64,000 nt of DNA from Myxococcota bacterium. GTDB taxonomy: Bacteria; Myxococcota_A; SURF-8. Shown piece after piece: positions 16,280-31,328 of this stretch. The position numbers and the translations under genes were made by a program. The stretch is from NCBI GenBank assembly GCA_965140415.1, contig OZ223209.1:480001-544000 (forward strand), read 5' to 3'. The stretch's first letter is position 1. Every line of letters begins with the position of its first letter. The notes below the pieces were generated by a model, which saw only the letters and a list, made by a program, of their open reading frames with translations, had not been told where the DNA came from and did no database searches.

Positions 16280-17701
16280 CTAACGCCTGTAGCGGTCGAT
16301 GTAGGTTTTATCGCTTCCCTGTACGTAACGCGCAGAAAAGATCAGATCTCCCGCCAAAGAGCGCTGACCGTCCAGCCCGACGATCTCTCCTGGCTGTTTC
16401 TCCTGCTCGCTCTCTTCCTCCGCGCCATCGGCTGTCAACCGCCAGATGATCACGCGATCCCGCGCGGGTTGCACTTCCGCCAACGAGCAGGCCAGTAAAG
16501 GCGAAGGAGAGCCGTCTAACAGCGCCGGATGCTGCCCGCATTGCAGGGCCGCCGAACCGAGCGGAATTCCATGCGCCGTTACGTTTCCGCGTTCGCCTAC
16601 TAGCAGATAATTGCCGTTTGGAAGAAATGCCGCACTGACAAAAGGAGCCGCAACGGTTCGCCCGTGCATGACACCTTCACCGATTTTACTGATATTGATT
16701 TCCGGTGAAAAACGCGCCTGACCGGCTTCGTACTGCCCAAGCGCTGCGCCGCTTTTCGTGCAACCGAGCGGAACGCCAAGAAATTCACCGCGATGGACGA
16801 GTTTTCGCCCGTTCCACTGAAAGATTTGACCGCTGGCCATGTTGTTTCTGCTCAGATAAATCTGGGGCCGGGCTTCACCTTCCATGCGACAGGCCGCCAT
16901 GGAGCCGGTGACATAGCGGGCGCTACGCAGCCGCAAGTCCAGCGAGTCGAGGGCAAAGGCATGGCGGAAAACGAAGTGATTTTCCTCCTGTAGCCAGATT
17001 TCCACACGATCTTCAAATAACAGCGCCACATCCGCCTGACGGTCGTTGTCCAGATCGGTAACGGTTAAATCCAGTGCACGTCCCGAACTGGTGGCGACGG
17101 TGTCCATGCGCCAGGCAATGTGTGACGGCTGAATCTCATCCGCCGATTGCGCCAGAATCGACCACTGCGCCGATTCTTTTACTTCGATTCGGGTGCGTTC
17201 TTCGGGGAAGAGGGGCGGATCTTGCAGCATGGCCGCCCAACTGCGTCCTTCCAGCCAGATGCTTCTGGCGCGCAATAAAAGCCGTCCACCGGTGACGGTT
17301 GCGGAGACATCCAGCACACAGGCAATGCCCAGCCTATCCAGCCGGTCGAGAGTTTCTTCGTTTAAAGAGAGAATGGGAAAGGGGACATCGGCGGGGGTCA
17401 TGACCTGCTTGAAGCGTCCCGATTGCACCAGCGCCCGGCGACCGTCCCGTTGTAACAGCGCCGCCAAAGGCGATTGCGCTACGCCGGTGACATCCGCATA
17501 GAAGAGCAAACGATCCTGCGGGGCCAAAAAAGGCCGGTCGGATCGATCCAACTCGGTTCCCAATTTGGTAAATGCTTCCACTAAAGATGCGGCGGGAGCA
17601 TCGCTCTCCGTTTGAGCCATAGCCGGAAGACTGACAAAAAACAGTGTCACTATTGCCAGCCAAGTAAAAAGATGGATGTCGTTCGTTTTCCACATCGTCA
17701 T
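16280..17701 (-). CDS. Secreted protein with FG-GAP/VCBS-like motif
   Basis: Signal peptide (..AMA-Q), LTVTDLDNDRQADVAL. First gene of a coupled operon. Confidence 0.7.
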   Translation of the reverse strand: MTMWKTNDIHLFTWLAIVTLFFVSLPAMAQTESDAPAASLVEAFTKLGTELDRSDRPFLAPQDRLLFYADVTGVAQSPLAALLQRDGRRALVQSGRFKQVMTPADVPFPILSLNEETLDRLDRLGIACVLDVSATVTGGRLLLRARSIWLEGRSWAAMLQDPPLFPEERTRIEVKESAQWSILAQSADEIQPSHIAWRMDTVATSSGRALDLTVTDLDNDRQADVALLFEDRVEIWLQEENHFVFRHAFALDSLDLRLRSARYVTGSMAACRMEGEARPQIYLSRNNMASGQIFQWNGRKLVHRGEFLGVPLGCTKSGAALGQYEAGQARFSPEINISKIGEGVMHGRTVAAPFVSAAFLPNGNYLLVGERGNVTAHGIPLGSAALQCGQHPALLDGSPSPLLACSLAEVQPARDRVIIWRLTADGAEEESEQEKQPGEIVGLDGQRSLAGDLIFSARYVQGSDKTYIDRYRR

Positions 17702-17843: not shown

Positions 17844-20288
17844 TCAAGGAGAAACTCTCATTCCCGGGTTGCTGTCGCTCGTTTTTTCAGGTGGCAGCGT
17901 TCCCGGTAAAAACACTTCCTCCAGCGCTCCCGGCGCATCTCCGCTAACCCGTTCACCGCTTTCCGGGTCGATATAGGCATGTAGTAAACCTGCCGCTACC
18001 GGGAAGGGCTGCACGGCTTCGTTCTGCAAGGCCGTTTTCATAAACGCCACCCAGCCGGGTAATGCCGCCCGTGCACCGGTTTCGCCGCGCCCCAAAGGCC
18101 GGTGATCGTCGTAGCCGACCCAGATTCCTGCTGCCAGTTTGGCGCTGTAACCCACGAACCAGGCGTCGCGCTGATCGTTTGCGGTGCCGGTTTTTCCCGC
18201 CACCGGTCGTTTGAGCGCCAGTGCCCGGCGCGAGGTGCCTTCTTTGACTACCGATTCCATTAAGGAAACCATTATTGCGGCTTCTTCCGGCGCGATGGCC
18301 TGACGCAGATTGGGCGTGCGCCGATACAAAATCCGGCCCGAAGAGGAAATCACCTGCCGAATCAGGTAGTCATCGTCGTATTGGCCGCGATTGGCGAAGG
18401 TGGCGTAGGCGTTGACTTGCTCTTCCAATCGAACTTCCGATGCACCCAACGAAAGGCTCAGCATCGGATGCAGCTTGGAGTGGATGCCGAAGGCGCGAGC
18501 GGTTTCGATGACCGCTGCCGGGCCGATATCGTTGATGATTTTCGCAGCGACGACATTGACGGAATTCGCCAGCGCCACCCGCAGACGAATCGGACCCCGG
18601 AATTTGCCGCTGAAATTCTGCGGCGACCAGGGCCTGGAGCCGGGAATGGGAAACGTGACCGCTTCGTCTTTTACGATGCTGGCCGGGGTGTAGCGATGGG
18701 TTTTTAACGCGGTCAGATAGACGTAAGGTTTGAAGCTGGAACCGGGCTGACGAAGCGCCTGGGTGGCGCGGTTAAACGGACTTAACGCCGCGCTGAATCC
18801 GCCCATCATGGCAACGATGGCGCGGCTTGGAACGTCGATAGCCAGCATGGCCGACTGCGCTTCGGGAACCTGCATCAATTTCAAGGCGATGGCTTCAGCG
18901 TTCTTCTCACCTGGCGGGTGTGTGCCGTCCAGCGCCACAACGATCGCCTGATTGAGTTGGAAAATCGAAGACAATTTCGTCTGGCGTTTCTTTTTTTTGT
19001 AGAAAGTCCAGGATGCGGCAGGCTGCTCGATGAAACCTCGTGTCGCTCCAAGTTGCACCGTTAGCCGGGGTGGCGAGTCCTGAATTTGGGTGATGTAAGC
19101 GTAATAAAGCTTTTCCGCTCTGACCACGCGAATCATCGTGCGCCAGAAGGAAGATGACGTTTCGTTCTGGGCGTTTTCCTGCATGTCGTCATTAACGGAT
19201 TTTTCCGTCATCGGCAGATGTTCGGCAGAGAAGGCCAGAACTTCGGCTTGGCCTCCGTTTCTCGTGAAGCGTTCCGAAAATTGACGAATCTGCTCGTTCC
19301 AGTCGTCGGTTTGCTGTTTCGGTAGGACCGGCAAGGCCCGATAGGCATGGCGTCGTTCATAATCGAACAGATTTTCCCGCAGTTCTTTCGCCATGGCGCG
19401 TTGCAACTCGGGCCGGATGTCGGTCATGATCTTCAAACCGCTTTTCGTCACATCCTGTTCGGGCAGTAACTCCGACAATCGGCGGCGGACTTCCTCCACG
19501 ACGTAGGCGGCTTCTTCGCCCATCTGTTCCGGCGGTGTGAAAACAAGCGGTGCATCGATGAAACGGGCGTAGTCGGCTTCGGAAATGTAGGCCAATTCCT
19601 TCAATCGTCTCAGGACGTATTGCTGACGTGTTTTGGCGCGTTCGGGATGGCGGTTCAACGCCAGAATTCCCGGCCCCTTGGGAAGACCGGCCACGTAGGC
19701 GATCTGGCCGATGTCGAGTTGTTTCAAGGGTTTATTGAAATAGAAATGTGAGGCTTCGGCCACGCCGTAACAGCCGTTTCCGAAATAGATTTCATTGGCG
19801 TACAGATACAGAATTTCCTGTTTGCTTAACCGGTTTTCCAGGCGATAGGCTAAAATGGCTTCCTTGATCTTGCGTACAAAGGAACGTTCGTGCGTAAGCA
19901 GCAGATTTTTACAAACCTGTTGCGTGATGGTGCTGGCACCCTGCCGGACGCGCAAGGCCAGCAGGTTGGCGATCATGGCGCGCGCAATACCGAGAAAATC
20001 GACGCCGTCGTGCTGATAAAATCCGGCGTCTTCGGCGCTGACCAGGGCATCGAGCAACAGCGGCGGGATCTCTTCTACGGGAACCAGGCTGCGGCGCTGT
20101 TCCCCGAATTCACCCAGAATGCTTCCATCGTGGGCGAAGATGCGGTTGATCTGGGCGGGGTGATAGTCCTCAACCGTGCGGATATCGGGTAGATCCTGGC
20201 TGTAGTACCAGAAAAGCGCGAAGATCGCGAGTACCCCGCAGAATCCCGCTACAAGCGACCCGAGTAATGCCAATCGCAGCCAGCGCAT
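17844..20288 (-). CDS. mrcA: Penicillin-binding protein 1A (class A PBP)
   Basis: Transglycosylase motifs EDAGFYQH, GASTITQQ, RKIKE. Transpeptidase motifs SSFK, SVN, KTG. OB-like insert. RBS ggagg before MRWLRL. Confidence 0.95.
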   Translation of the reverse strand: MRWLRLALLGSLVAGFCGVLAIFALFWYYSQDLPDIRTVEDYHPAQINRIFAHDGSILGEFGEQRRSLVPVEEIPPLLLDALVSAEDAGFYQHDGVDFLGIARAMIANLLALRVRQGASTITQQVCKNLLLTHERSFVRKIKEAILAYRLENRLSKQEILYLYANEIYFGNGCYGVAEASHFYFNKPLKQLDIGQIAYVAGLPKGPGILALNRHPERAKTRQQYVLRRLKELAYISEADYARFIDAPLVFTPPEQMGEEAAYVVEEVRRRLSELLPEQDVTKSGLKIMTDIRPELQRAMAKELRENLFDYERRHAYRALPVLPKQQTDDWNEQIRQFSERFTRNGGQAEVLAFSAEHLPMTEKSVNDDMQENAQNETSSSFWRTMIRVVRAEKLYYAYITQIQDSPPRLTVQLGATRGFIEQPAASWTFYKKKKRQTKLSSIFQLNQAIVVALDGTHPPGEKNAEAIALKLMQVPEAQSAMLAIDVPSRAIVAMMGGFSAALSPFNRATQALRQPGSSFKPYVYLTALKTHRYTPASIVKDEAVTFPIPGSRPWSPQNFSGKFRGPIRLRVALANSVNVVAAKIINDIGPAAVIETARAFGIHSKLHPMLSLSLGASEVRLEEQVNAYATFANRGQYDDDYLIRQVISSSGRILYRRTPNLRQAIAPEEAAIMVSLMESVVKEGTSRRALALKRPVAGKTGTANDQRDAWFVGYSAKLAAGIWVGYDDHRPLGRGETGARAALPGWVAFMKTALQNEAVQPFPVAAGLLHAYIDPESGERVSGDAPGALEEVFLPGTLPPEKTSDSNPGMRVSP

Positions 20289-20511
20289 AAAACAACCTCC
20301 AAAATTTCCAAATAATATCATATCGTTCTGTAATAATCAACTGAATGTAATAGTCTCCATTGCGGCAAACCGGTACTTCTGCTTTAACAAACCACAAAAT
20401 ACAGACCAATCAAGCATGAAAGATGAGGTAGAATAGGTTGCTAAACTAAAAAAGAAAATCAAATAACTAAATAATATCAATCATTTTCGAGATTATAATT
20501 TAAAATAGGCA

Positions 20512-20540
20512 TTGACTTTTACACCGAGTCAGTTTATTGT
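20512..20540 (+). promoter_or_regulatory. Sigma70-like promoter
   Basis: TTGACT-17 nt-TATTGT in the AT-rich intergenic region upstream of 20610. Confidence 0.45.
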
Positions 20541-20609
20541 TTTAGTGTTATTGCTGTTTTGCTGGTATGCCACCTGGTGGTAGTAGCTGAAGCTGAAAGA
20601 TAGATTGTT

Positions 20610-21329
20610 TTGAAGATTGGATCATCGTTGGCTGTAGCGTTCATCTTAGGGTACTTCATTGTAACGACTGTTTCTATGGCAGAAGTTCAACATACCTGGA
20701 TTCTCGATGAGAATTCGACCAATCAACTCTTTTCCTCGGTAAAACAAACTGTCGGTCATTTTCCCGGTTATGAAATCACGTCTTTTTCCACCGATCAAGG
20801 CTTGGCCAAGCTGTTACTGAAAACCTCCTCCGGTAGCGTGGGTGCAAATCTGTACCGCGTAGGTGATCAGGTTACAATCGATTTCGATCCCTCATTAGCT
20901 ACGGAAGATCAACGCAGGTTAAAACGCGAACTAATGAAGACAATTGACTCTTCTCTATGGACTGTCAAGCCTGTTGCCTGGCGGGGGCATCAGCAGGAGC
21001 AGTTGGAGTTGGTGAATCTGGCCTTGGCGGAGTCGACTCTTTTCGCTGTAACAATTAACCGACTCTCCCACATGACGGTCTATCATTTCCTTGGATTGAT
21101 CATGGGAGTGTTGCTGGCGGTGATGCGTCCGTGGTTGAGGAGAAACAACAAACGACGCTACGAACGCTCTTTCGGAATCTGGGTGTTGATTATGCTGCTG
21201 ATTGGGATGATCTGGGCGCTACGCGGGTCCATTCAATTAGTGGCAATGCCTCTTGCGGTACTGCCGATTGGGCTTGGTTGGTTGATTGGTGGAATCCCGA
21301 AAACAAAGCACACCCGAAACGACATTTAG
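20610..21329 (+). CDS. Hypothetical membrane protein (paralog A)
   Basis: Signal peptide, soluble domain, 3 C-terminal TMs ending ERS..IWALRG..LGWLIGG. Similar to 21565-22362. Start (TTG) uncertain. Confidence 0.7.
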   Translation: MKIGSSLAVAFILGYFIVTTVSMAEVQHTWILDENSTNQLFSSVKQTVGHFPGYEITSFSTDQGLAKLLLKTSSGSVGANLYRVGDQVTIDFDPSLATEDQRRLKRELMKTIDSSLWTVKPVAWRGHQQEQLELVNLALAESTLFAVTINRLSHMTVYHFLGLIMGVLLAVMRPWLRRNNKRRYERSFGIWVLIMLLIGMIWALRGSIQLVAMPLAVLPIGLGWLIGGIPKTKHTRNDI

Positions 21330-21564
21330 CAGTGGTTATTTCTTGTTGGTATTGATTCCAGAGTGACAGTTTTCTCGCTTTTCTTCTATTCCGTATTCTA
21401 GCCTGTTGTACGTAACTTTAAGTCAAAAAAGGGGAGACATTTCGGGCGAATTCCGAAATTTGAAGAATTGTTCGTTTGATATTGACAATTACTGACATTT
21501 TGTTAAAAATACGACATCTAGTTGAATTGGACCGCCAAAGAATACAAAGACAAAACATGAACAG

Positions 21565-22362
21565 TTGAAGTTGAGGCTGATTCGTATGGTGCATATGTTC
21601 GAAAGTATGCGGAGCAAGGAATTATTGTTCGCGGCTGTTATGATTGCTGTTTTTCCAATAATAGCTGGGCAAGAGCAGATTGCCTATTGTGACAATTCGA
21701 CTCCACAGTCCATGAACCAGACCCGCCAGTGGGTGCTGAAAGCCGAGGTCGTTCAAGAAATTTTCGGCAGGCTCGACCAGTCGTTCAAGTCGGTTGATGG
21801 GGTTCGGATGGTGCGATTTCAGGCAGAGCAAGGGAGTCTTTTGCTTCAGCTTTCCGTTTCGGGTGCTCCGTTAGATGTGAAGGTGACAAGAGAATCCGCC
21901 GGAAAGATCGCGATTGATATCACTTCGAGCCTTTCCCAAAGGCAACAGGATCGAATTGCTTCCATCATTCGCGGGCAGTTGTCGCCCTCTTATTGGGAAA
22001 TGGTTTCAAAGCCGAATTCATTAAAGAAAGGCTGGCTCAGTTCTAAATCCATTGTGGAGAAAGCCACACCGGAACTGGAAGCGATTCTGGCTAACCACCT
22101 AAAACTGTCAAGCCAGAACGTTGCAATCTCGATTTCATTGGCATTGCTGGTTGGCCTGCTTCGATTGATGCTTCAATTGCGCCAAGTGCCTACGGTGGAA
22201 CGTTCCGGTTCAATATTCGTTTTAACGATATGCATTCTGGCCATTTGCTGGGCCTTGCGCGGCATACCGGAATTTGCCTTTTTTTCGTTTGTGGTGAGTT
22301 TCATCGCTTTGGGCTGGTTACTTGGTGGAGTGAGGCTTCGCCGCCGGGAGGCAAAGCCATGA
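21565..22362 (+). CDS. Hypothetical membrane protein (paralog B)
   Basis: Same architecture, ERS..CWALRG..LGWLLGG. Stop overlaps the next ATG. Exact start uncertain. Confidence 0.7.
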   Translation: MKLRLIRMVHMFESMRSKELLFAAVMIAVFPIIAGQEQIAYCDNSTPQSMNQTRQWVLKAEVVQEIFGRLDQSFKSVDGVRMVRFQAEQGSLLLQLSVSGAPLDVKVTRESAGKIAIDITSSLSQRQQDRIASIIRGQLSPSYWEMVSKPNSLKKGWLSSKSIVEKATPELEAILANHLKLSSQNVAISISLALLVGLLRLMLQLRQVPTVERSGSIFVLTICILAICWALRGIPEFAFFSFVVSFIALGWLLGGVRLRRREAKP

Positions 22363-23618
22363 AGTCGATGCACTTGCGCAGTACACGCGGGATCTGTCCA
22401 CAATGTGGAGAAATGGTCCGCGCCGAAGTCATTCACGAGGGTGACCGGATCGTGCTGCATAAACATTGCCCGCAGCATGGTGCGTCGGAAGCGTTGATCA
22501 GCAAACATCCGGATTTCTACCGGGCTATCGACAAGCACCTGACTCCGCCGTTTTCTTCTGCCCTGCGTTTTGCTTCGGATGCTCCTCACCTGAATGGGGT
22601 GTTTGTGGATGTCACCGGGCGCTGCAACCTTCGTTGCACCTGCTGTCTGGCCAGCGTTGGCCACGACGAACGCTCGGAGCCGAAGCTGGCCGATTTCCTG
22701 CACTTTCTGAAAACCCTCAAACAGCGTCCCTTGATTTATCTTTCCGGCGGAGAACCCACCTTGCGTTCGGATCTGCCGGAATGGATTCAAACGCTCACGG
22801 AACACGGGTACACGGTCAAGCTGTTGACCAACGGGTTGACTTTGACGGATTTTGCCTACGTGCAGCAGTTGAAGGCTGCCGGGCTGCGCTGGGCGATGAT
22901 TCAGTTCGATTCGCTCTCCGATACTGCGCTGCAAACGTTGAGAGGGTGTCCTTTGGCGGAGGTTCGTCGGCAGGCGGTGGAAAACTGTGCCGACGCCGGG
23001 TTGCATATCGTGTTGCCCTGCGTGATCCATCCCGGTGCCAACGATCATGAATTAGGTGATTTGCTGGCCTTTGCGCAGCGAACTCCGGCGGTGCGACAGG
23101 TCTCGTTCTTACCCGCAGCCAATCAGGGAAATTGGTCGTTTAACGAAAATCGGGCCGGATTGGAAGCGGCGGACATCTGCGATCTGCTGTTTCGGCAGAC
23201 AAAGGGGCGTATCGGACGCCGGGATTTCCTGACACAGTTTTCCTGGATGGCGCGCCTGCATCGCAGCAGCCGCTTGGAACATCTGGCACCCCGACGTTGT
23301 TTTCTGCCGTTATTGGCCACCCGAAACGAGCAAGGTGTCTGGCCGATCAATCGCCTGCCGCGTTCGTTGGGGCAGCTATTTTCTCACGTCCACGCGGCCA
23401 AAGACGTTTTGGGAAAACTGCTGCAATGGCAGCCGTTCGAGCAGGACGAGCACCCACACGACAGCCTGTTGTACATCACCATCGAAACCTTTCGCGAACG
23501 CGACTCGCTGGATATCGACGATGCCTGCATGTGCAGCCGCTATTACTGGGCCGACGATCGCCTGACACCGGCCTGTCTGTACAACCTGCTTTATCGGACG
23601 CAGGAGGTGCAGGCATGA
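22359..23618 (+). CDS. Radical SAM protein, tetraether synthase (Tes/GDGT-MAS/MJ0619)-like family
   Basis: N-terminal CPQC..(21)..CPQHG metal site, CNLRCTCC, SGGEPTLR, LTNG, IQFD, C-terminal F...DSLD....MC....PACLYN. RBS ggagg and ATGA overlap. Confidence 0.85.
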   Translation: MKSMHLRSTRGICPQCGEMVRAEVIHEGDRIVLHKHCPQHGASEALISKHPDFYRAIDKHLTPPFSSALRFASDAPHLNGVFVDVTGRCNLRCTCCLASVGHDERSEPKLADFLHFLKTLKQRPLIYLSGGEPTLRSDLPEWIQTLTEHGYTVKLLTNGLTLTDFAYVQQLKAAGLRWAMIQFDSLSDTALQTLRGCPLAEVRRQAVENCADAGLHIVLPCVIHPGANDHELGDLLAFAQRTPAVRQVSFLPAANQGNWSFNENRAGLEAADICDLLFRQTKGRIGRRDFLTQFSWMARLHRSSRLEHLAPRRCFLPLLATRNEQGVWPINRLPRSLGQLFSHVHAAKDVLGKLLQWQPFEQDEHPHDSLLYITIETFRERDSLDIDDACMCSRYYWADDRLTPACLYNLLYRTQEVQA

Positions 23619-25333
23619 ACATGATTGTCAATCAGCTTGTATGCGCCATCTGTTTAAGCGCCGCATTGTATTGCCTGATCGATTACGTGCAGGAACGTGC
23701 GGAAAAGCCGTTGCCTTCGCGTTTCAAGACGATTCTGCTGATGCTGGTCGTGTTGGCCGGTGGATTACTGGCCATTAGACTGTATGCCCCACCGGCTTTT
23801 ATTCATGCGAATCTGCATGGGTATGACCTGCTGGACAACATCTATTCTTTTCCTCAACCTGCCGATTACCGAAGCGCTTACGGTCAGGGATCGTTTTTAC
23901 TGATGGGCGTCTGGGAGTCGCTGTTCGGTTTGCAGTGGCAGGGATTGATTCTGCTGAACAGTCTGGCCAATGTGGGAATTCTGTTGTTGGCCGCTGCGCT
24001 GGCCTATCGGGTTTCCGGTAGTTTTGCAGCGGCTGCGGCAATTGCCATCGGCGCATTGCACCCGCTGTTTGTGCGTGTCGCCGCATCCGAAGATGCCCAT
24101 AATATCGGAGTCTTTTTCGGTATGCTGGCTTTGTATGCGCTGGTGGAGTTTGTTGCTGGAAATAGAAAGCACATTATCTGCCTGGTTCTGCTTTGCTGTA
24201 CAACGATTCTGACTTTGCTCTCGCGTCAGAGTTTGCTGTTCTGGCCCATCATGATTGCGCTTTATCTGGTCTTGACAAACCGCAAAGCGGTTTCTCCGTG
24301 GCGTTTGCAGAAAAAGCACTGGGTGCTCATCGCCTCTTTAGTTGCTGTGATGGGAATTGTTCTTCTGATCATGCTTAACCAGAAGAGCGAGCGGCTTTCG
24401 GTAGTGGCGATGTTTTCCATTCCGTTTTCGAGCTTGAAACTCGTGACGTTCATTTTCAAGAACCATCCGCTCTTTCGCTTGGATGAGTCGCTGCCGTTGC
24501 TGCTGTTGTCGATTTCCGGTGCCATCGTGGCGCTAAAAAGCCGTCAGCCATTGTTGCTTACTTTGCTGGCAGGAGCCGCGATCAGTTTTGTCATGACGCT
24601 GGGAATGTCCGTGCATCCGGGTTACGGCGTTGAATACGGATTCCGCCTGCCATTGTTTGCGTTGTTGTTGCCGTTGGCGGGTGCCGGTGCGGCATTTCAA
24701 CTGGAGGCATTGAAGAAAACCTCTCTCGGTCGCATTGCCGGTTTCGTGGCGCTTGCCCTGGTGCTTTTATGGCCGCTCCCTGCATTGATGCAGACCCTTG
24801 TAGAGTCGGAACCGTTGCAGCAGCAATATGAAATCGTCGAGCGTGCACGAATGAATTACTCCAATGCAAGCCGGGCGCTGGTAGTGAAAAACAAGGCGAA
24901 AGAGTCGCCTAACTTCGATTGGCCGACCTCCTTCCGCAATCCGCCGGGAATGTCCTTCGTTCACGAACGCGATGCAAAGGAAAGCGATAACATCTGCTAC
25001 GTGTTGCAGGACTTGCGCTGTTTTGCCTATTCGCTGGTGGAGCAGACTCCCAGTGGAGAAGCGCTTGAGATGTTTGAAATGGTGATGAATCTGTCACCGG
25101 ATGAACAGGCTCGGTTTCTAGATGGGTTGTGGAATGATGCCAACGAGAGCTTCAGCGTGTTGAATCAGGTGCCGCCCAGCGGTATGCGTAGGGAATGCCG
25201 TCAGGCATTCGCCAAAGCGGTTCGCTTCGATACCTGGGGTGTCGTGAAGATTCCGCACCAGGAGCTTCCTCATGTGTATTACACGAGCGATGAAATTCCG
25301 GTAGGCGTCTGGGTGATGCCGGGGTGCGAGTAG
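23615..25333 (+). CDS. Polytopic membrane protein, GT-C (ArnT/PMT-like) glycosyltransferase-like
   Basis: More than 10 hydrophobic helices, loop HANLHG, LHPLFVRVAASE, TM ending in R, EYGFRL, soluble C-terminal domain. RBS aggagg and ATGA overlap. Confidence 0.7.
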   Translation: MNMIVNQLVCAICLSAALYCLIDYVQERAEKPLPSRFKTILLMLVVLAGGLLAIRLYAPPAFIHANLHGYDLLDNIYSFPQPADYRSAYGQGSFLLMGVWESLFGLQWQGLILLNSLANVGILLLAAALAYRVSGSFAAAAAIAIGALHPLFVRVAASEDAHNIGVFFGMLALYALVEFVAGNRKHIICLVLLCCTTILTLLSRQSLLFWPIMIALYLVLTNRKAVSPWRLQKKHWVLIASLVAVMGIVLLIMLNQKSERLSVVAMFSIPFSSLKLVTFIFKNHPLFRLDESLPLLLLSISGAIVALKSRQPLLLTLLAGAAISFVMTLGMSVHPGYGVEYGFRLPLFALLLPLAGAGAAFQLEALKKTSLGRIAGFVALALVLLWPLPALMQTLVESEPLQQQYEIVERARMNYSNASRALVVKNKAKESPNFDWPTSFRNPPGMSFVHERDAKESDNICYVLQDLRCFAYSLVEQTPSGEALEMFEMVMNLSPDEQARFLDGLWNDANESFSVLNQVPPSGMRRECRQAFAKAVRFDTWGVVKIPHQELPHVYYTSDEIPVGVWVMPGCE

Positions 25334-25335
25334 TC

Positions 25336-26322
25336 ATGCGCCCGACGACCGTTGCCGGCGGATTGGCCAAACTGCTGCTTGCGCGTGCAACAAAGCGCAG
25401 CCTCTGGTCGCATGTCACCGCATTGATCACCATGCGCTGCAATTATCGCTGCGCCTACTGCGATTTTCACCGGCACGAATTCGAGGAATGGCCCAAAGAG
25501 AACTGGCTACGCTTATTACCGCAACTGCGACAGCTAGGGACGATCCGCCTTAGCCTTTCCGGCGGCGAGCCGCTGTTACGTCCCGATTTGCCGGAACTGA
25601 CCGACTGTGCCGCAAAGCAGGGATTCATCACCAGTCTGGTGACCAACGGTGCGTTATTGCAGCAGCGCCTGCATGAAATCCGGCAGGTGGATTATCTGCT
25701 GTGTACGATCGAAGGCGATCGGCAAACTCACGACAAGGTGCGCGGTGAAGGGTCATTCGAGCAGGTCGTTACCGGAATCGAGGCGGTACGGCGCAATAGA
25801 AAATGGAAAATCGGGCTGATCTGTCCCGTCCATAAAGATAATCTTTCGCAGCTGGAAGAACCGCTGAAACTCGGTGAGCAGTTGGGGGCGGGTGTGTTTT
25901 ACCAGCCGGTGCAGATTCGTCAGGGCTGGCAGGGAACCGATTTCGAACGGACCTTGTCCGAAGTGGAGCTTCATGAAGCGCTACGCACCCTGCAACAGTG
26001 GAAGCAACAAGGCCGACCGGTGGGTAATTCCCATGCCTATCTTCGCGGACTGGCGGAAAATCGTCTGTTCGATGCCGAGCAGCCTTGCACGGCAGGAGAA
26101 ACCTTTGTGACCCTGCTCCCCGACGGGCGGGCCTTGCCCTGCTGTATGCTGCCGTTTTCCGACGCAATCTCCGTCGATCCAAACAATCCCGCTCTCGCCA
26201 TGCAGCATCTAAGCGCGGTCTGCTGCCAAGGTTGTTCGATTGCTCCTTATTATGAAAACACACGCTTGCTCAACCTGTCGCCTTCGAGTATTGTGAACGC
26301 TCTGAAATGGAACCGAAAGTGA
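25336..26322 (+). CDS. Radical SAM protein with Twitch/SPASM-like C-terminus
   Basis: CNYRCAYC, SGGEPLLR, VTNG, HDKVRG, CTAG..PDG..PCC..CCQGC. Confidence 0.9.
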   Translation: MRPTTVAGGLAKLLLARATKRSLWSHVTALITMRCNYRCAYCDFHRHEFEEWPKENWLRLLPQLRQLGTIRLSLSGGEPLLRPDLPELTDCAAKQGFITSLVTNGALLQQRLHEIRQVDYLLCTIEGDRQTHDKVRGEGSFEQVVTGIEAVRRNRKWKIGLICPVHKDNLSQLEEPLKLGEQLGAGVFYQPVQIRQGWQGTDFERTLSEVELHEALRTLQQWKQQGRPVGNSHAYLRGLAENRLFDAEQPCTAGETFVTLLPDGRALPCCMLPFSDAISVDPNNPALAMQHLSAVCCQGCSIAPYYENTRLLNLSPSSIVNALKWNRK

Positions 26323-27161
26323 CGTTCATCAATATGTCTCCAATTGCAACAGCATGGTTCAAGTTACTGCGCCCGACGGATTGGCTGCATTTTCTGTTTC
26401 TGCCGCTGATGACTATCTCATTTGCGGAGTTCAATGGCGTCTGTTTGGTTTCCGCCCTGATCGGCGCTGCGATTTATCTGGCGTTTGCCTATGGCTACAA
26501 CGAATACAAAGACAGCGGTCTTTACAAGTGGAACAGGGAAGCGCTAAGGGAATACCTGGGCGTGGGACATGTCGGTATTTGGCTGGCATGGATTGTACTG
26601 ATTGCTCTTGGTTTGGCTGTTACGGGGTTGTGTGGCGCATCCTCACAGATCGCGATGCTTAGTGGAGTGATCGGTAGCTATTTGTACTCTGGCGGTCCCA
26701 GGCTGAAACGCTTTCCCGTGATCGGCACTCTGGCCAATCTGTGGATCTTTCTTCCGGTAGCCCTTTTAGGTGGACAGTTTTCGCTCGTTGCCGCCGCGCC
26801 CTGGCTGTTAGGCGTCTTTTCGTTACTGCTGATACAAAACCAGTTGATCCATGAAGCCACTCACCGCCAAGAAGATCGGCGCGACAACATCCGCACCTCC
26901 GTTGTGGTGTTCGGTAATGAATTCGCCCGATACGGTTCCGCTTCGCTCGGACTTTGTGCGGCGGTGTGCATGGCGGGTTTCGGCTGGATTCACGAAACGT
27001 CGATCCTGTTTGTGCCTGCTCTGATACTTGCGCTATTCAGCGGAATCTATCCGTTCGCCTGCCTCTTTGTCGAAGTCTCCTCTCTTTCGCGGTTGCGCCT
27101 GTTGCAGCGTTATGTCGGTGTCGCCTGTGGAGCGGTTTTCTGGATCGGAACGATTTTCTGA
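26307..27161 (+). CDS. UbiA-superfamily prenyltransferase
   Basis: LLRP..W, first motif YNEYKD, YSGGPRLKRFP, second motif HEATHRQED...IRT. About 8 TMs. Confidence 0.8.
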   Translation: MEPKVTFINMSPIATAWFKLLRPTDWLHFLFLPLMTISFAEFNGVCLVSALIGAAIYLAFAYGYNEYKDSGLYKWNREALREYLGVGHVGIWLAWIVLIALGLAVTGLCGASSQIAMLSGVIGSYLYSGGPRLKRFPVIGTLANLWIFLPVALLGGQFSLVAAAPWLLGVFSLLLIQNQLIHEATHRQEDRRDNIRTSVVVFGNEFARYGSASLGLCAAVCMAGFGWIHETSILFVPALILALFSGIYPFACLFVEVSSLSRLRLLQRYVGVACGAVFWIGTIF

Positions 27162-27267
27162 AGCTCAACATGCCCGACAGGGATGATATGAGCGACTAGC
27201 GACAATCCTGCTCGTTGACTTTCCTGCATTTTTGGGGTATCAGAGGGGCGAGCAAAGGAGGTTTCCC

Positions 27268-28182
27268 GTGAAGATTCAAGCGTATCCCGAATACCTTTTC
27301 GACCCGTCCACCCGGCATATGCTCTCGGTCGCTCATCAGGACGATGAAATCATGTACTGCGGTTTGATCCAGCGCTGGGGCGAGGATTGCCGCTTTTTAT
27401 GGACGACCAACGGCGATGGGCTGGCACCGTTCGTCAATGCGGACCCGAAGGAATATGCCGAAATCCGCAAAGCGGAAACGGATGCCGTATTGACCACGCT
27501 GGGACGTTCGCTGTCGTTGCGCCGCTGCATGGATTACTCTGAAATCGAGATCTACGACAATTTCGTCGACTTGACGCTTGCGCCGCAGCGCACCGAAGAA
27601 ATCATGGATTTCTTTTACAAGATCGGCTGTGAAATCTACCGGGAAATCAAAGAATTCAACCCGGATGTGGTGTGGTCGGGAGCCTTTCAGAACGGGCATC
27701 CCGAACACGATTTGGTACATTTCCTTTCCGGGTATGCCATTCGCCAGATCAATAGCGAACAGGAAAAACAGATCGCTTTTTATCATCTGCCTGAATACGA
27801 GTACACGATCCTGCTGCCGTTCCGTTTTCATCCCCGCTACAAAGGCATCATTCACGCCATCGAACTGACGGAAAAGGAAGTGGAAGTCAAAGCCCAGGCG
27901 TTGCAATGCTATCCCAGCCAGGTGGATTTGTTTACCAAGTTCGAGCGTGTATTCAATGGGTTGGGTAAGTTGTCCGGTTTGCTCGGAAAGCCTTTTACCG
28001 CAGAAGATTTCTTAAAGAAGGAAATCTTCTCGAAGGTGCCGGATGACATCGATTACACGAAATCCACCCATTGGTTCGAGTTCGAGAATTACATCGGCGA
28101 CAAGAACAAGAATATCAAAGTTCGCTTTGACCGTCACGTCGGAGCGATTGCCGCCCGGATGCGCGATCGGCCTTTCGCCTGA
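27268..28182 (+). CDS. PIG-L/LmbE family deacetylase
   Basis: AHQDDE, TNGD, R..E, GHPEHD, K..ALQCYPSQ. RBS aggagg before GTG. Confidence 0.85.
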   Translation: MKIQAYPEYLFDPSTRHMLSVAHQDDEIMYCGLIQRWGEDCRFLWTTNGDGLAPFVNADPKEYAEIRKAETDAVLTTLGRSLSLRRCMDYSEIEIYDNFVDLTLAPQRTEEIMDFFYKIGCEIYREIKEFNPDVVWSGAFQNGHPEHDLVHFLSGYAIRQINSEQEKQIAFYHLPEYEYTILLPFRFHPRYKGIIHAIELTEKEVEVKAQALQCYPSQVDLFTKFERVFNGLGKLSGLLGKPFTAEDFLKKEIFSKVPDDIDYTKSTHWFEFENYIGDKNKNIKVRFDRHVGAIAARMRDRPFA

Positions 28183-28254
28183 TTGGTAGGCGGAGCAAGT
28201 CCCATCTGATTGTACGGGGCGGCGAAATTCCGTGATGTACAGGAGGCACAAGTC

Positions 28255-29619
28255 ATGCGTGCTCGGATAATCAGCATAGTGGCGATCCTGTTGTGTTGGA
28301 TCATGGCGGCGGCAAACGCGCAGGCCGGTGAGATTATCCGCCTGGATCAGGCGCAGCGGCTGGCGCTGGAAAACAATCACGATATCAAGGAACTGGTGGA
28401 GAAAAAACAGCGGGCGGACATTACCCTGATTCGCGCCTGCACGATGCTGCTGCCCAGTATCTACCTGCGCGGGTCGATCACACGCCACGACAAGAGCATC
28501 AAGTTTCCATCCGACAGCGATATGGATCTCTTACAGACCGCCTGCGATCAGGGCGACGTTTCTTCCTGTGCGACCTTGCAGTCCACCGAGCAGATGACGA
28601 TCCAGGATTTGTGGGGTTATTCGACTTCGTTGACTGCGACCATGCCGCTGTTCTACCCACGTTCGATTCCGCTGATCATGAATGCCGATAGTGGTGTGGA
28701 TGTGATGGATTTGATGAAGCGCCACGGCGAGTCAGAACTGTTGTATTCGGTTACGGCGGCTTATTATGCGGTGTTGCAGGCGGATAAGCTGGTTGACGTT
28801 GCCGAGAAAGCCCTGGAACGCTCGCAAGATCATTTAAAGAGCGCACAAAACAAGGTCAAAGCCGGTAAAGGCGTGCGCCTGGAAGTGCTGCGCGCCGAGA
28901 TGCGTATCGCCGAAGCGGAAAAGGCACTGACGGAAACCACCGCCGGACGCGATCTGGCCCGGCAGGGATTGGGGTTCTTGATCGGACGCCCGGAAACGTT
29001 TGGCGTTGTGTTGCCGGAAATCGTGGCCAAGCAACCGGAAGGCAGCGTACCTTCACTGGTGGAAAACGCTCAGCGACAACGTTTGGATTTGCGGGCGATG
29101 CGAGAAAACGTGGTGATTGCAGATCGCAACAACACCGATGCCTGGCTGAAATTCGCACCGGACTTTTCAATTCAAGGAAGCTATAGTTGGGCCAACGCCA
29201 GCGGCTTTTCCAATTCCAATTCAAGCTGGCAGGTGATGTTCATGGCCAATCTGCCGATTCTGGAAGCCGGAACGCAGGTTGCGGATATCATGGAAACCGC
29301 CAGTAAAACCCGTTCCTCGCAGATCGAAGCGGATAAATTGGCCGAGCAGATCGCCAATCAGGTGCGCGAGGCGGAACTGAATTTGAATCAAGCGCGTGCG
29401 AAACTGGACGTTTCGATCAAGCAATCGGAACTGGCCAGGGAAAACTATGAACTGGTCAAGCGTCAGTACGATGTCGGCCTGGTGGACAACCTCACGATGC
29501 TGGATGCCGAAACGGAGTTGTTCCGGGCGGAGCAGTCGCAGGCGCGTGAAGAACTCTCTGAAATTCTGGCGATTCTGACTTTGCGTCAGCGTTCCGGTTT
29601 CATTTTGGGAAGGAAATAG
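28255..29619 (+). CDS. TolC-family outer-membrane efflux protein
   Basis: Signal peptide, ALENNHDI, VTAAYYAVLQA, RQYDVGL..LDAE. RBS aggagg. Confidence 0.9.
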   Translation: MRARIISIVAILLCWIMAAANAQAGEIIRLDQAQRLALENNHDIKELVEKKQRADITLIRACTMLLPSIYLRGSITRHDKSIKFPSDSDMDLLQTACDQGDVSSCATLQSTEQMTIQDLWGYSTSLTATMPLFYPRSIPLIMNADSGVDVMDLMKRHGESELLYSVTAAYYAVLQADKLVDVAEKALERSQDHLKSAQNKVKAGKGVRLEVLRAEMRIAEAEKALTETTAGRDLARQGLGFLIGRPETFGVVLPEIVAKQPEGSVPSLVENAQRQRLDLRAMRENVVIADRNNTDAWLKFAPDFSIQGSYSWANASGFSNSNSSWQVMFMANLPILEAGTQVADIMETASKTRSSQIEADKLAEQIANQVREAELNLNQARAKLDVSIKQSELARENYELVKRQYDVGLVDNLTMLDAETELFRAEQSQAREELSEILAILTLRQRSGFILGRK

Positions 29620-29622
29620 AAC

Positions 29623-30393
29623 ATGCGGTTAAGGGGTTTCTTAGCGGCGATTGTCGTTTGGTTCATGATCTTCCCATGCTGGGCGCAGGATGCGGAACAG
29701 CTACCCGAAAAGGTGGAAACAACAGTCGAACAACCAAGTGGTACTCCTGCGGCTAAAAAAGCGACGAAACCGGAAAAACCGGAAAGCGACACACTGGCGG
29801 GAGTCGATGTTCTATTGAACAACAAAATGCTTTTCGATCCCGTACCGGGAAGTTGGGCGCGTTATCGATTGGAAGAAAAGATCCAGCAGCAGAGTCGGGA
29901 AATTCTGGTCGGTATCGGACCGCGGCGTGGCGCGATTGCCAAAAACAGCTACTGGATCGAAATCATCACTACCAGTAAAAGCGGCACCGAGGTTAAAATC
30001 GGCGTTTTGTATCGAATCGACAAGACCGGTCGGCACGAGGTGGATCGCCTGGTCGTCAAGATGGGAGATCATCCGGCGGTGGAACTGCCGGACAGCTCGA
30101 CCGAATATTCATTGACGCGGGAAAAGCCGGTGCGTTACGCCCAGTTGGGAATGGAAAAAGTCGAAGTTCCCGCCGGGCGGTTCGATGCCGAGCGTGGACG
30201 CTTCCGCTATACGGAAGATGAAGTGATGGAAGTGTGGACTTCCAAAGATGTGCCGCCCTTTGGTATCGTGCGCGCCATGTCGATCACCTACGATCTGCAG
30301 CTGATGGAATACGGCTCCGATTTCGAACCGATGGAGTTGGGCGAGCCGATGATTCTAAAGAGCCCCGAACCCTTCAATGCAAACAAGCCATGA
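29623..30393 (+). CDS. Secreted hypothetical protein (VEVPAGRF beta-rich domain)
   Basis: Signal peptide CWA-Q, PGSWARY, EKVEVPAGRF, VWTSKDVPPFGIV. Coupled to tolC and xerD. Confidence 0.75.
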   Translation: MRLRGFLAAIVVWFMIFPCWAQDAEQLPEKVETTVEQPSGTPAAKKATKPEKPESDTLAGVDVLLNNKMLFDPVPGSWARYRLEEKIQQQSREILVGIGPRRGAIAKNSYWIEIITTSKSGTEVKIGVLYRIDKTGRHEVDRLVVKMGDHPAVELPDSSTEYSLTREKPVRYAQLGMEKVEVPAGRFDAERGRFRYTEDEVMEVWTSKDVPPFGIVRAMSITYDLQLMEYGSDFEPMELGEPMILKSPEPFNANKP

Positions 30394-31328
30394 ATGCCTG
30401 GAACCTGGATCGGGCACTGGACGAATTCAGCGCGTATCTGAAGATCGAGCGTCGCTTGTCTGCCAATACGCTTGCCGCCTATAACCGCGATTTGACACGC
30501 TATCTGGATTTTCTGCAAACACGCGGCATCGAAACGCCTCTTCGCATTCAGCGGGAGGACGTTCGGGATTTTCTGGCGGATTTGAGCGAACAGGGATTGG
30601 GAGCGCGCACCCGTAGCCGCATGACCAGCGCCTTGCGCGGCTTTCATCGTTTTCTGATCAAGCGAAACGTCTGTGAGCACGATCCTAGTGCCGACGTGCA
30701 TTCTCCCAAAGCCGGGCGCAAGCTGCCGCGCGTGCTGTCCGAAGAGGAAATCCGGGCGCTGCTTGCCGCACCGGATGTGGAAACTCCATTGGGACTGCGG
30801 GATCTGGCGATTTTCGAAGTGCTTTACGCTTCGGGGCTGCGCGTGTCGGAATTATGCGATCTGGATGTGAGCGCCGTAAATCTGGAGGCCGGGTTTTTGC
30901 GTGCCTTCGGCAAGGGCAAAAAAGAGCGACTGGTGCCGATGGGTGAAAGCGCCAGGCAGGCGGTGGAACGCTATTTGAAACAGGCGCGATCCTTGCTGCA
31001 AGATCCCCGTAAGCCCTCCCCTGCTCTGTTTGTCAGTCGGCGCGGTAAACGGTTGACACGCGACGCCGTTACGAAGCTGGTCGAGAAATACAGCTTATTA
31101 GCCGGAATTACTCGTAAAATTTCACCGCACGTGCTGCGCCACAGCTTTGCGACTCATTTATTGGAACATGGTGCGGATCTGCGAGCGGTGCAGGCCATGT
31201 TGGGTCATGCCGATATCGGCACCACGGAAATCTACACGCACCTGGATCGGGAAGTGATCCGGCGCACCTATACCAACGCCCATCCGCGAGCCGGGCGCAA
31301 AGCAAAAAACAGCACTTCGGAAGAGTAA
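30390..31328 (+). CDS. xerD: Site-specific tyrosine recombinase XerD
   Basis: ERRLSANTLAAY, LYASGLRVSEL, GKGKKERLVP, HVLRHSFATHLL, LGHADIGTTEIYTH. Confidence 0.93.
   Translation: MNAWNLDRALDEFSAYLKIERRLSANTLAAYNRDLTRYLDFLQTRGIETPLRIQREDVRDFLADLSEQGLGARTRSRMTSALRGFHRFLIKRNVCEHDPSADVHSPKAGRKLPRVLSEEEIRALLAAPDVETPLGLRDLAIFEVLYASGLRVSELCDLDVSAVNLEAGFLRAFGKGKKERLVPMGESARQAVERYLKQARSLLQDPRKPSPALFVSRRGKRLTRDAVTKLVEKYSLLAGITRKISPHVLRHSFATHLLEHGADLRAVQAMLGHADIGTTEIYTHLDREVIRRTYTNAHPRAGRKAKNSTSEE

Follow-up and report, generated by a model that had tools for sequence, protein, structure and literature searches.

A conserved cassette of radical SAM, UbiA-superfamily and GT-C-fold enzymes in a Myxococcota bacterium, with a possible role in tailoring a lipid-linked head group

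The Arn pathway, which modifies lipid A, consists of a GT2 glycosyltransferase (ArnC), a deformylase (ArnD), a flippase (ArnE/F) and a transferase of the glycosyltransferase C (GT-C) fold, ArnT. ArnT is a PMT_2-type enzyme that works at the periplasmic face, taking a tailored amino sugar from undecaprenyl phosphate and using a lipid as acceptor. The mycobacterial decaprenylphosphoryl-arabinose (DPA) pathway is a relative of a second system, the one that provides pentofuranoses. As outlined for the O-antigen of Citrobacter, this system combines a UbiA-type polyprenyl-phosphate phosphoribose synthase, a MATE flippase, a GT-C enzyme of family GT136 and a cytoplasmic epimerase (Kelly et al. 2024, PMC11127046). 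Enzymes of a different type act on lipid tails: the radical S-adenosylmethionine (SAM) enzyme Tes, or GDGT-MAS (MJ0619; structures 7TOL and 7TOM; model NF045702), is described in this role in PMC9433317. In PMC8941075, PMC11868695 and the review PMC13459092, bacterial Tes homologues are put forward, untested, as enzymes that could make membrane-spanning lipids. Bacterial relatives of tetraether synthase have likewise been proposed, without test, to make the branched tetraether lipids used in palaeoclimate proxies. Here we analyse a window of 64,000 nucleotides from a Myxococcota bacterium (assembly GCA_965140415.1, contig OZ223209.1, positions 480,001 to 544,000 of the forward strand; coordinates below count from its first letter). 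It contains a six-gene locus, g1 to g6, that is a conserved and undescribed envelope module assembled from uncharacterised branches of known enzyme superfamilies. Our proposal for its function, which we hold tentatively and at a little short of an even chance, is that g6 produces a lipid-linked head group, which the radical SAM enzymes then tailor and which g4 transfers at the periplasmic face.

The genes of the locus are:
20610-21329, plus strand: g1, 239 amino acids (aa), small membrane protein; the listed open reading frame (ORF) has a TTG start and the true start is uncertain
21565-22362, plus strand: g2, 265 aa, small membrane protein; TTG start in the listed ORF, true start likewise uncertain
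22359-23618, plus strand: g3, 419 aa, radical SAM enzyme of the Tes/TrsS (MJ0619-like) family
23615-25333, plus strand: g4, 572 aa, polytopic membrane protein, GT-C fold
25336-26322, plus strand: g5, 328 aa, twitch-type radical SAM enzyme
26307-27161, plus strand: g6, 284 aa, UbiA-superfamily membrane transferase

As the initial annotation of the window had it, the six genes share one orientation and the last five overlap or abut. ATGA overlaps join g2 to g3 (at 22359) and g3 to g4 (at 23615), the TAG stop of g4 ends at 25333, 2 nt before the g5 ATG at 25336, and the g6 ATG (26307) sits within the end of g5 (stop 26320-26322), giving a 16-nt overlap. GGAGG-type ribosome-binding sites precede g3 and g4. 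Genes g2 to g6 are thus tightly, translationally coupled. That annotation had also recognised the members of the set: the GT-C-like protein is confirmed by a predicted structure and its matches, the second radical SAM enzyme by a Pfam Radical_SAM score of 72.9 bits and the UbiA family label by 45.4 bits against a cut-off of 34.2. It had not recognised the combination as a described pathway, and our literature searches found no description of the gene combination either.

Like the pentofuranose system, the cassette genetically links a UbiA-superfamily membrane enzyme to a GT-C-fold transferase. The predicted g4 resembles the GT-C enzyme of the three-component system in its many transmembrane (TM) helices and its putative C-terminal periplasmic domain, and for the cytoplasmic enzymes that there tailor the lipid-linked donor before export we propose a counterpart in the cassette. 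The two part company in several respects. g6 falls outside the phosphoribosyltransferase clade, a member of which is encoded elsewhere in the genome; flippase and phosphatase genes are missing from the cassette; the tailoring would fall to radical SAM enzymes rather than to short-chain dehydrogenase/reductase (SDR) or DprE-type epimerases; and g4 represents a separate family that scores below the PMT_2 cut-off. The Arn pathway offers parallels in its de-N-acylase acting on a lipid-linked donor, to which the PIG-L gene beside the cassette and the YdjC gene of a related locus (L074) are comparable, and in ArnT, with which g4 aligns at Z 22.2 over 423 residues. However, the Arn pathway has no radical SAM enzymes, and the cassette has no ArnC-type GT2 and no ArnE/F; a GT2 domain occurs only in a natural fusion to a g3-clade enzyme (P0030).

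Conservation of the locus was followed by scans with the g4 alignment, which gave two genome loci (a Myxococcota and an Elusimicrobia metagenome-assembled genome) and nine metagenome loci, and by profile searches of 401 sampled genomes of the window's phylum. With the g4 profile 70 of these genomes have matches at E ≤ 1e-10. Full-length, strong orthologues are present in seven, the window's own included (G000, G043, G058, G083, G153, G178, G378); the remaining matches are limited to the membrane module and resemble ordinary PMT_2-type paralogues. When duplicates (L007 and L009, L011 and L012, and three genomes of genus g49) are merged, 14 groups of g4 loci are obtained. A g5 orthologue lies beside g4 in ten of them (the window, L005, L006, L009/L007, L010, L013, L015, L037, L068 and L071) and a g6 orthologue is present in eight (the window, L005, L006, L009, L013, L037, L068 and L071). 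Several of the groups with no g6 or g5 are contigs of only 1.3 to 3.4 kb, and in L008, L014 and L011/L012 other radical SAM genes adjoin g4, leaving genus g49 as the only group with no radical SAM neighbour. The g6-clade profile matches 24 of the 401 genomes at E ≤ 1e-12, 18 of them full-length at E ≤ 1e-55, and all seven genomes with a g4 orthologue are among these 18, kin not being independent in this count (three of the seven genomes are of one genus).

The pairing of g6 with g5 is tighter still. At ten further g6 loci (L072-L081) a full-length g5-type gene, scoring 262-427 bits, stands directly beside g6 in every case, so that all 18 loci with g6 have the two genes side by side. A g4-family gene accompanies the pair in eight of the 18, being absent from all ten further loci within about 9 kb at E ≤ 1e-5, and a g3-type or other Zn_ribbon_HMPTM radical SAM gene lies nearby in four (the window, L005, L037 and L075). 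Since g5 adjoins g6 throughout and g4 is missing from the ten further loci, the invariant core of the module is g6 plus g5, with g4 frequent but not obligatory and the g3 type occasional. Co-occurrence in other genomes had been suggested as a check on the initial annotation, and its outcome is favourable: the genes do recur together; because the same families do so, their grouping is more than chance.

Two natural fusions provide a further link. In P0188 (835 aa) a UbiA domain of g6 type, which has the canonical motifs and is 30% identical to g6 (E 6e-18), is fused to a g4-family domain spanning residues 287-833. P0030 (682 aa) carries an N-terminal GT2 domain fused to a radical SAM enzyme that falls, on a long branch, inside the g3 clade. 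The GT2 domain is ArnC/DPM1-like, its best NCBIfam models being ArnC, PgfS and PpgS, all far below their cut-offs. The fusions connect the UbiA enzyme with the GT-C enzyme and link the g3 clade with glycosyl-lipid chemistry.

The genes around the pair in related loci were surveyed as six-frame ORFs of at least 130-230 residues only. They include further radical SAM genes, some of B12-binding type, and B12-radical SAM and other radical SAM genes are abundant in L006, L037, L071, L075 and L077. As a conserved component of the cassette the B12-radical SAM genes were rejected: they share only 22-32% identity, are not clear orthologues, and none is present in the window. Cupin_8/JmjC hydroxylases lie near the pair in three organisms (L007, L072, L073); L073 also has a PMT_2 GT-C gene, L075 a Wzc-like protein, and in L081 ATP-grasp genes flank the pair. 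L074 (G180:C10:2000-21000) has two additional radical SAM genes with g6-g5, and this group is flanked by a YdjC-like deacetylase and a DegT-family sugar aminotransferase. A DegT aminotransferase found together with a twitch radical SAM enzyme is reminiscent of BtrN/BtrS in butirosin biosynthesis. Within about 11 kb, L071 (G043:C71:9000-27942) holds three B12-radical SAM genes, three other radical SAM genes (one the g5 orthologue), a g6-type UbiA gene and a g4 orthologue, and its contig carries a second g4-like gene. Beside the pair in L076 (10311-13133, minus strand) and L077 (925-3216, 6457-8400 and 8709-10628, minus strand) are long ORFs with two Radical_SAM stretches each, which may be tandem-domain radical SAM proteins.

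The g4 protein has about 12 hydrophobic helices followed by a soluble C-terminal domain of about 180 residues, as judged by hydropathy. It reaches only 17 bits (E 0.007) on the Pfam family PMT_2 (PF13231), short of the gathering cut-off of 26.1 bits. Sequence-profile searches of the PDB gave nothing significant with g4 alignment A1 or with A7, for which the best match was PglB (E 0.087), and g4 alignment A4 could not be aligned by hhalign to the PMT_2 ORF of L073. Relatives are few: a word-index search of 5.77e9 proteins found six other clusters, and a profile scan of 1.84e9 representatives returned 212 at E ≤ 1e-3, of which 96 reach E ≤ 1e-30. When 51 of the 212 were scanned with PMT_2, 21 matched at E ≤ 1e-3 and 12 scored above the cut-off, and the relatives that pass lie mostly in the weak, distant tail of the profile list.

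An AlphaFold model of g4, based on a 50-sequence alignment, has a mean predicted local distance difference test score (pLDDT) of 92.7 and a predicted template modelling score (pTM) of 0.93. In a Foldseek search of the PDB with this model, all 27 matches at E ≤ 1e-3 are GT-C glycosyltransferases that use lipid donors. By VIA it aligns best with yeast STT3 (8agb_A; Z 26.3, root-mean-square deviation 5.4, 430 residues), followed by AglB (23.6), PglB (22.6), Pmt4 (22.6), ArnT (22.2) and ALG12 (22.0). Fifty-five chains reach Z ≥ 8; the 50 best rows all have the GT-C fold, 47 being glycosyltransferases and three, at ranks 47-49, PIG-U chains of the glycosylphosphatidylinositol (GPI) transamidase. 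The neighbours of g4 in the ESM Atlas are all of RgtA-D or PMT_2 type. Because the alignments to GT-C structures begin near residue 30, the first helix is an addition to the canonical fold. Across the 50 sequences of A4, H64, P80, G90, E159 and H162 are invariant, and S158, D160, R204 and two cysteines of the C-terminal domain (C469, C528) nearly so. E159 and D160 belong to a ‘SEDAH’ loop between TM4 and TM5, which by hydropathy and the positive-inside rule would lie on the periplasmic side; the first loop has the invariant H64 but no invariant acidic residue, and no WWDYG-type motif appears among the invariant columns. From the predicted structure we are confident that g4 founds a rare family with the GT-C glycosyltransferase fold.

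The g3 protein matches two Pfam families, PF23545 (Zn_ribbon_HMPTM, 50.6 bits) and PF04055 (Radical_SAM, 77.4 bits), and its best solved relative is GDGT-MAS (7TOL, E 8.7e-43), although the alignment extends only over residues 7-291. Like Tes/GDGT-MAS, it has a rubredoxin-like CX2CX20CX2H motif (C13-x2-C16-x20-C37-x2-H40, aligned to that of 7TOL), a radical SAM core with the CX3CX2C motif and a C-terminal CxC...C motif (C390/C392, C406). In orthologue alignment A3 the conserved C-terminal cysteines are Cys314, which is invariant, Cys392 and Cys406. Unlike Tes/GDGT-MAS, g3 is about 100 residues shorter, and it does not have the C73/C77/C80 motif of the [4Fe-4S]N auxiliary cluster (there is no cysteine in the aligned g3 residues ~60-82, and none conserved there in A3) or the Cys438-Met439 pair, in place of which it has Glu-Thr. 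The cluster and motif features of GDGT-MAS used in this comparison are those given in PMC9433317, where the N-terminal auxiliary cluster has a His as ligand besides these three cysteines and the C-terminal auxiliary [4Fe-4S] cluster has the labile Met439.

Profile scores separate g3 from both named subfamilies. It scores 163.2 bits on the Tes model NF045702 (cut-off 450) and 193.9 bits on the TrsS model NF045646 (cut-off 490), the latter over profile positions 2-305 of 441 only. Of the 135 relatives that a protein search returned at E ≤ 1e-10, the top 21 apart from the query (P0009-P0029) are full-length proteins sharing 30-50% identity with it, three bearing a Myxococcales or Myxococcota label. 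Nine orthologues scanned (E ≤ 1e-35) reach at most 169 bits on the Tes model and fall below both cut-offs, as do P0009 (146 bits on the Tes model) and P0023 (159 bits), whereas in the same scan true Tes rows score 463-533 bits and other rows pass as TrsS. A quick, rather than careful, IQ-TREE search with 58 rows gave an unrooted split (SH-aLRT, the Shimodaira-Hasegawa-like approximate likelihood ratio test, 98) with 20 g3-type rows, P0030 and a Nanoarchaeota row on a long branch (P0122) on one side, and Tes, TrsS and five unclassified rows on the other. The sub-cut-off scores and the separate clade place g3 in neither subfamily, and on this basis it is assigned to a third clade of the Tes/TrsS family. 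Thus the description of g3 as Tes-like stands at the level of the family but not for Tes proper. No functional data on TrsS were found in the literature. Separately, a bona fide TrsS protein of Pelobacter propionicus (P0034, 727 aa, 654 bits) is fused to a domain (112 bits) like MbdU, a metal-binding double selenoprotein; the fusion hints that TrsS may have a role in metal or organometallic rather than lipid chemistry.

The proteins of the invariant pair also stand apart from characterised families. g5, with its Radical_SAM (PF04055) match, is not matched by Pfam SPASM. Its best NCBIfam model is TIGR03961 (the PTO1314 family, itself uncharacterised), at 114 bits against a cut-off of 306, followed by PqqE at 92 bits; three orthologues score 93-98 bits on TIGR03961, on which literature searches found no paper. 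The best PDB matches are PqqE (7e-13) and BlsE (3e-10). The CX3CX2C motif is C35/C39/C42 and, because only 27 residues precede it, there is no N-terminal peptide-recognition domain. Seven orthologues have only three C-terminal cysteines in common (C251, C269 and C300 in alignment A8), arranged as CX12GX4C plus one further invariant cysteine, a pattern that fits a twitch-type single auxiliary cluster with three ligands.

g6 passes the cut-off of UbiA (PF01040), and only 12 other clusters of relatives were found. As with AfUbiA and the archaeal ‘prenyltransferase’ models PRK12875 and PRK12884, to which they are most similar, g6 and its clade are related to known enzymes only at a distance: the closest structure to g6 is AfUbiA 4TQ3 (E 4e-9), and the clade scores 23 to 37 bits on the two models, far below their cut-offs of 205 to 269 bits. 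For g6 itself PRK12875 (23 bits, cut-off 205) is the only NCBIfam model matched at E ≤ 0.01, and no DGGGP-synthase model is above cut-off. The clade differs from AfUbiA and the PRK models in its own motifs, NxxxD(xxxD) and (D/H)xxED, of which the full forms are NxxxDxxxD and DxxED. The window's g6 keeps N65 and D69 of the first and E189 and D190 of the second, but has lost the third Asp of motif 1 and has His186 for the first Asp of motif 2 (alignments A2, A5). As P0277, P0278, P0280 and P0281 share both changes, the altered motifs look like a subclade trait and not decay. By its scores and motifs, g6 is placed in a rare UbiA clade.

The genome, a single contig of 5.98 Mb that is 93.7% complete, was searched for partner pathways. 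There were no matches to PcrB/GGGP synthase (PF01884) or CarS/CDP-archaeol synthase (PF01864), while controls responded, which argues against an archaeal-type ether-lipid route as far as these two enzymes represent it. A single prenyl-diphosphate synthase of PF00348 is encoded (G000:C1:3029947-3030846), a short-chain, trans, IspA-like enzyme whose first Asp-rich motif region we take to resemble those of farnesyl diphosphate (FPP) synthases; the same search found no long-chain synthase. With only an IspA-type trans-prenyl synthase found, FPP and undecaprenyl phosphate would be the obvious lipid substrates. With no match to a long-chain synthase, isoprenoid quinone synthesis by this organism is itself in question. 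UbiA-family genes number three. Besides g6 there is a decaprenyl-phosphate phosphoribosyltransferase (G000:C1:1355432-1356322; NF008977, 301 bits, cut-off 234), and since this canonical enzyme is encoded away from the cassette the organism probably makes a polyprenyl-phospho-pentose donor independently of it. The third match (G000:C1:50024-51499, 45.9 bits) falls in the C-terminal half of an open frame of 491 residues, whose N-terminal extension is long and hydrophobic. Searched with the Tes profile, the genome yields 39 matches of radical SAM type (E ≤ 1e-3), a number that suggests an anaerobic life style. Consistent with a Myxococcota source are the Myxococcota labels on the closest g3 and g4 relatives, genomes of up to 11.5 Mb among those sampled from the phylum and an abundance of Ser/Thr kinases among neighbouring genes.

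How might such enzymes act together? In the head-group proposal the chemical steps, the topology and the identities of donor and acceptor that we infer are these. At the cytoplasmic face g6 would link a lipid with a group activated as a diphosphate, by moving either a short prenyl chain of FPP onto a polar acceptor or a phospho-sugar-like group onto undecaprenyl phosphate. g5 and g3 would then tailor the lipid-linked intermediate without need for oxygen and, after flipping, g4 at the periplasmic face would use it as donor or acceptor in the modification of an envelope component such as a glycan, lipid or protein. Head-group chemistry is favoured because of the GT-C fold, the two fusions, the obligate UbiA-radical SAM pair and the sugar-related neighbours, namely PIG-L in the window, DegT and the YdjC-like protein in L074, the PMT_2 GT-C gene in L073 and the Wzc-like protein in L075. 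The association of a UbiA-type enzyme, cytoplasmic donor tailoring and a GT-C enzyme has a precedent in the three-component pentofuranose system (PMC11127046). Several observations weigh on the other side. No flippase of the GtrA, MATE or ArnE/F type was found in the six proteins or the flanking genes (Pfam and NCBIfam, E ≤ 0.01), nor any phosphatase or nucleotide-sugar gene in the cassette (Pfam). The window's g6 lacks two canonical Asp residues and does not match the polyprenyl-phosphate phosphoribosyltransferase model NF008977 (cut-off 234 bits) at E ≤ 0.01, and a second UbiA gene already fills that role. The ten further g6-g5 loci have no g4-family gene, and in genus g49 g4 and g6 are on different contigs. 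B12-radical SAM enzymes, which are present in related loci, typically tailor lipid tails, and the only characterised relative of g3 acts on tails, not head groups (PMC9433317).

These last points lead to the explanation we regard as rather unlikely but as the first to be weighed against head-group tailoring, that the product is a new isoprenoid membrane lipid, cross-linked and then glycosylated by g4. Here g6 would attach an FPP-derived chain to a polar backbone, g3 would couple chain termini through a Tes-like C-C bond, g5 would use its three-Cys auxiliary cluster for a further cross-link or modification and g4 would glycosylate the completed lipid at the outer face in the manner of PimE or ArnT, with lipid acceptors. 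The relation of g3 to GDGT-MAS (E 8.7e-43) and the motifs the two have in common, the coupling of lipid tails by the sole characterised relative, the three-Cys auxiliary site of g5, the richness of related loci in B12-radical SAM and other radical SAM genes (as in archaeal tetraether tailoring) and the proposals made, without test, for bacterial Tes homologues in PMC8941075 and PMC11868695 all speak for it. Yet g3 has 163 bits where Tes requires 450, is without the C73/C77/C80 motif and the Cys438-Met439 pair and is split from Tes and TrsS at SH-aLRT 98, and enzymes of its type, or other Zn_ribbon_HMPTM radical SAM enzymes, accompany the pair in only four of 18 loci. The genome has no match to GGGP synthase or CarS, the chains would be C15 if the only trans-prenyl synthase is, as it looks, of FPP type, and core-lipid synthesis needs no GT-C enzyme. 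In a specific form of this idea, a bacterium would make, without need for oxygen, an isoprenoid glycolipid that is cross-linked into a macrocyclic or membrane-spanning form: the UbiA enzyme would start from FPP, g3 join the chain ends, g5 form a second link and g4 glycosylate the product at the outer face; this we consider unlikely. The archaeal-lipid analogy of the initial annotation is weakened by the missing GGGP synthase and CarS, by the failure of g3 in the Tes test together with its separate clade and by g6 scores below the DGGGP-synthase cut-offs. As between its two options, a membrane lipid or a modified surface glycan or lipid carrier, the second is better supported by the GT-C fold, the fusions and the sugar enzymes of related loci, and neither is proven.

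The GT-C fold could also be read in terms of protein glycosylation, since the highest Z values of g4 are to the protein-glycosylating STT3, AglB and PglB (26.3 to 22.6), with Pmt at 22.6. The substrate would be protein X (the name used here for g1 and g2) or another envelope protein, cross-linked or altered by the radical SAM enzymes, hydroxylated by JmjC enzymes in the relatives, given a prenyl group by g6 and glycosylated through an oligosaccharyltransferase-like action of g4. The neighbours of g5 in sequence include the peptide maturases PqqE, ScmE and WgkB; Cupin_8/JmjC genes stand next to the pair in L007, L072 and L073 and ATP-grasp genes flank it in L081; and X is found beside g4 in two organisms. 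But STT3 and ArnT differ in Z by only about 4, the invariant columns of g4 hold no WWDYG-type motif, g5 has no recognition domain for peptides that are made by the ribosome and modified after translation (RiPPs), with its 27 residues before the cluster motif, and X was not found by a three-sequence hidden Markov model (HMM) in most related loci searched. To our knowledge, UbiA enzymes do not prenylate proteins. Taken together, these make a protein substrate improbable. UbiA enzymes commonly prenylate precursors of quinones, tocopherol, heme and chlorophyll, and an oxygen-independent route to a prenylated redox cofactor or pigment, quinone- or tetrapyrrole-like, with g4 as an unrelated passenger, would agree with the weak matches of g5 to the tetrapyrrole radical SAM enzymes NirJ, AhbC and AhbD (E 1e-17 to 1e-22) and with the label ‘4-hydroxybenzoate polyprenyltransferase’ given by one source to two g6 relatives. 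The UbiA-g4 fusion and the translational coupling argue against g4 as a passenger, however, the cassette has no ring-precursor genes, no long-chain prenyl-diphosphate synthase was found, and the only NCBIfam model that g6 matches at E ≤ 0.01 is PRK12875, at 23 bits against 205; a cofactor or pigment product is therefore very improbable.

The locus brings together five families with no characterised member, the g3 clade, the g4 GT-C family, the g6 UbiA clade, its g5 partner and protein X; synteny in distant lineages connects them, as do two natural fusions. The tetraether-synthase family thus has at least one bacterial clade that lies outside Tes and TrsS and is accompanied by UbiA and GT-C genes, and because of this position BLAST counts of ‘Tes homologues’ may overstate tetraether potential. 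If the head-group proposal is true, periplasmic glycosylation from lipid-linked donors would extend to radical-SAM-tailored donors in anaerobes. A cross-linked membrane lipid would be a new bacterial lipid class and, in its glycolipid form, would mean Tes-type chemistry on bacterial isoprenoid chains, independent of the archaeal glycerol 1-phosphate (G1P)/GGGPS pathway. The six genes form a compact unit suited to an expression test under either reading.

Protein X is represented by two copies in the window. g1 starts with a signal-like helix, followed by a soluble domain of about 130 aa and, at the C-terminus, two or three TM helices (hydropathy), its C-terminal part carrying WALRG and LGWLxGG motifs; g2 is built alike, with a signal-like N-terminus, a soluble domain of similar size (about 130 residues) and helices at the C-terminus. 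The two align by BLASTP at E 6e-13, with 25% identity over 214 aa, and on this similarity they are taken to be paralogous small membrane proteins. g1 matched no Pfam family, and g2 gave no usable match in the ESM Atlas. The model of X has a mean pLDDT of 59.8 and is confident only at residues 54-148. A Foldseek search of the PDB had no matches at E ≤ 1e-3 (the best, at 6.4e-3, was a KA1 domain), and the only matches of a wide VIA search were to helical bundles, on the TM part. Metagenome contig L009 has a homologue (E 9e-10) placed between g5 and g4, and upstream of g4 in L007 (HMM E 1e-47) there is an X of identical sequence; L007 and L009 overlap and represent one organism. It was not found by the three-sequence HMM in L005, L006, L008, L010-L015, L017-L041, L067-L071 or L072-L081.

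Transcription of the locus may start in the AT-rich DNA before g1, which the initial annotation had pointed out, and perhaps again in the spacer after that gene. Flanking and non-coding features are:
16280-17701, minus strand: ORF of 473 aa with no Pfam family
17844-20321, minus strand: penicillin-binding protein PBP1A (TIGR02074, 564 bits)
20322-20609: intergenic DNA that separates g1 from the divergent PBP1A gene, AT-rich at 33% GC (genome mean 52.4%)
20512-20540, plus strand: sigma-70-like site before g1, a 9/12 consensus match only
21330-21564: spacer between g1 and g2, AT-rich at 36% GC (genome mean 52.4%)
21482-21510: sigma-70-like site before g2, the best of the region, TTGACA-17-AAAAAT, a consensus match only
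27232-28182, plus strand: PIG-L family de-N-acetylase (PF02585, 42.6 bits), 70 nt 3' of g6
28210-29619: TolC-like OEP, downstream of PIG-L
29623-30393, plus strand: ORF of 256 aa with no Pfam family, between the TolC-like protein and XerD
30234-31328: listed ORF of XerD, overlapping the preceding ORF by 160 nt

Nine sigma-70-like sites were seen in the scan, against 5.7 expected. The spacer at 21330-21564 may contain a second promoter, for g2-g6, and the locus forms either a single operon-like unit or a pair of units whose promoters lie ahead of g1 and g2. Signs of recent horizontal insertion were looked for in the base composition: the cassette genes have 48-57% GC, within the normal spread of the genome (mean 52.4%, sd 4.1% in 1-kb windows), and hence there is no compositional sign of recent transfer.

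The position of the operon between PBP1A (mrcA) and a PIG-L/tolC/xerD run agrees with the family matches to TIGR02074, PF02585, OEP and XerD. Because of the 160-nt overlap, the true start of XerD is probably further downstream than 30234. PIG-L was ruled out as a conserved component of the cassette, as tblastn found no homologue in the related loci searched with it. In three relatives the PIG-L homologues sit in other neighbourhoods, away from any of the genes that surround it in the window, and here it may be a local add-on.

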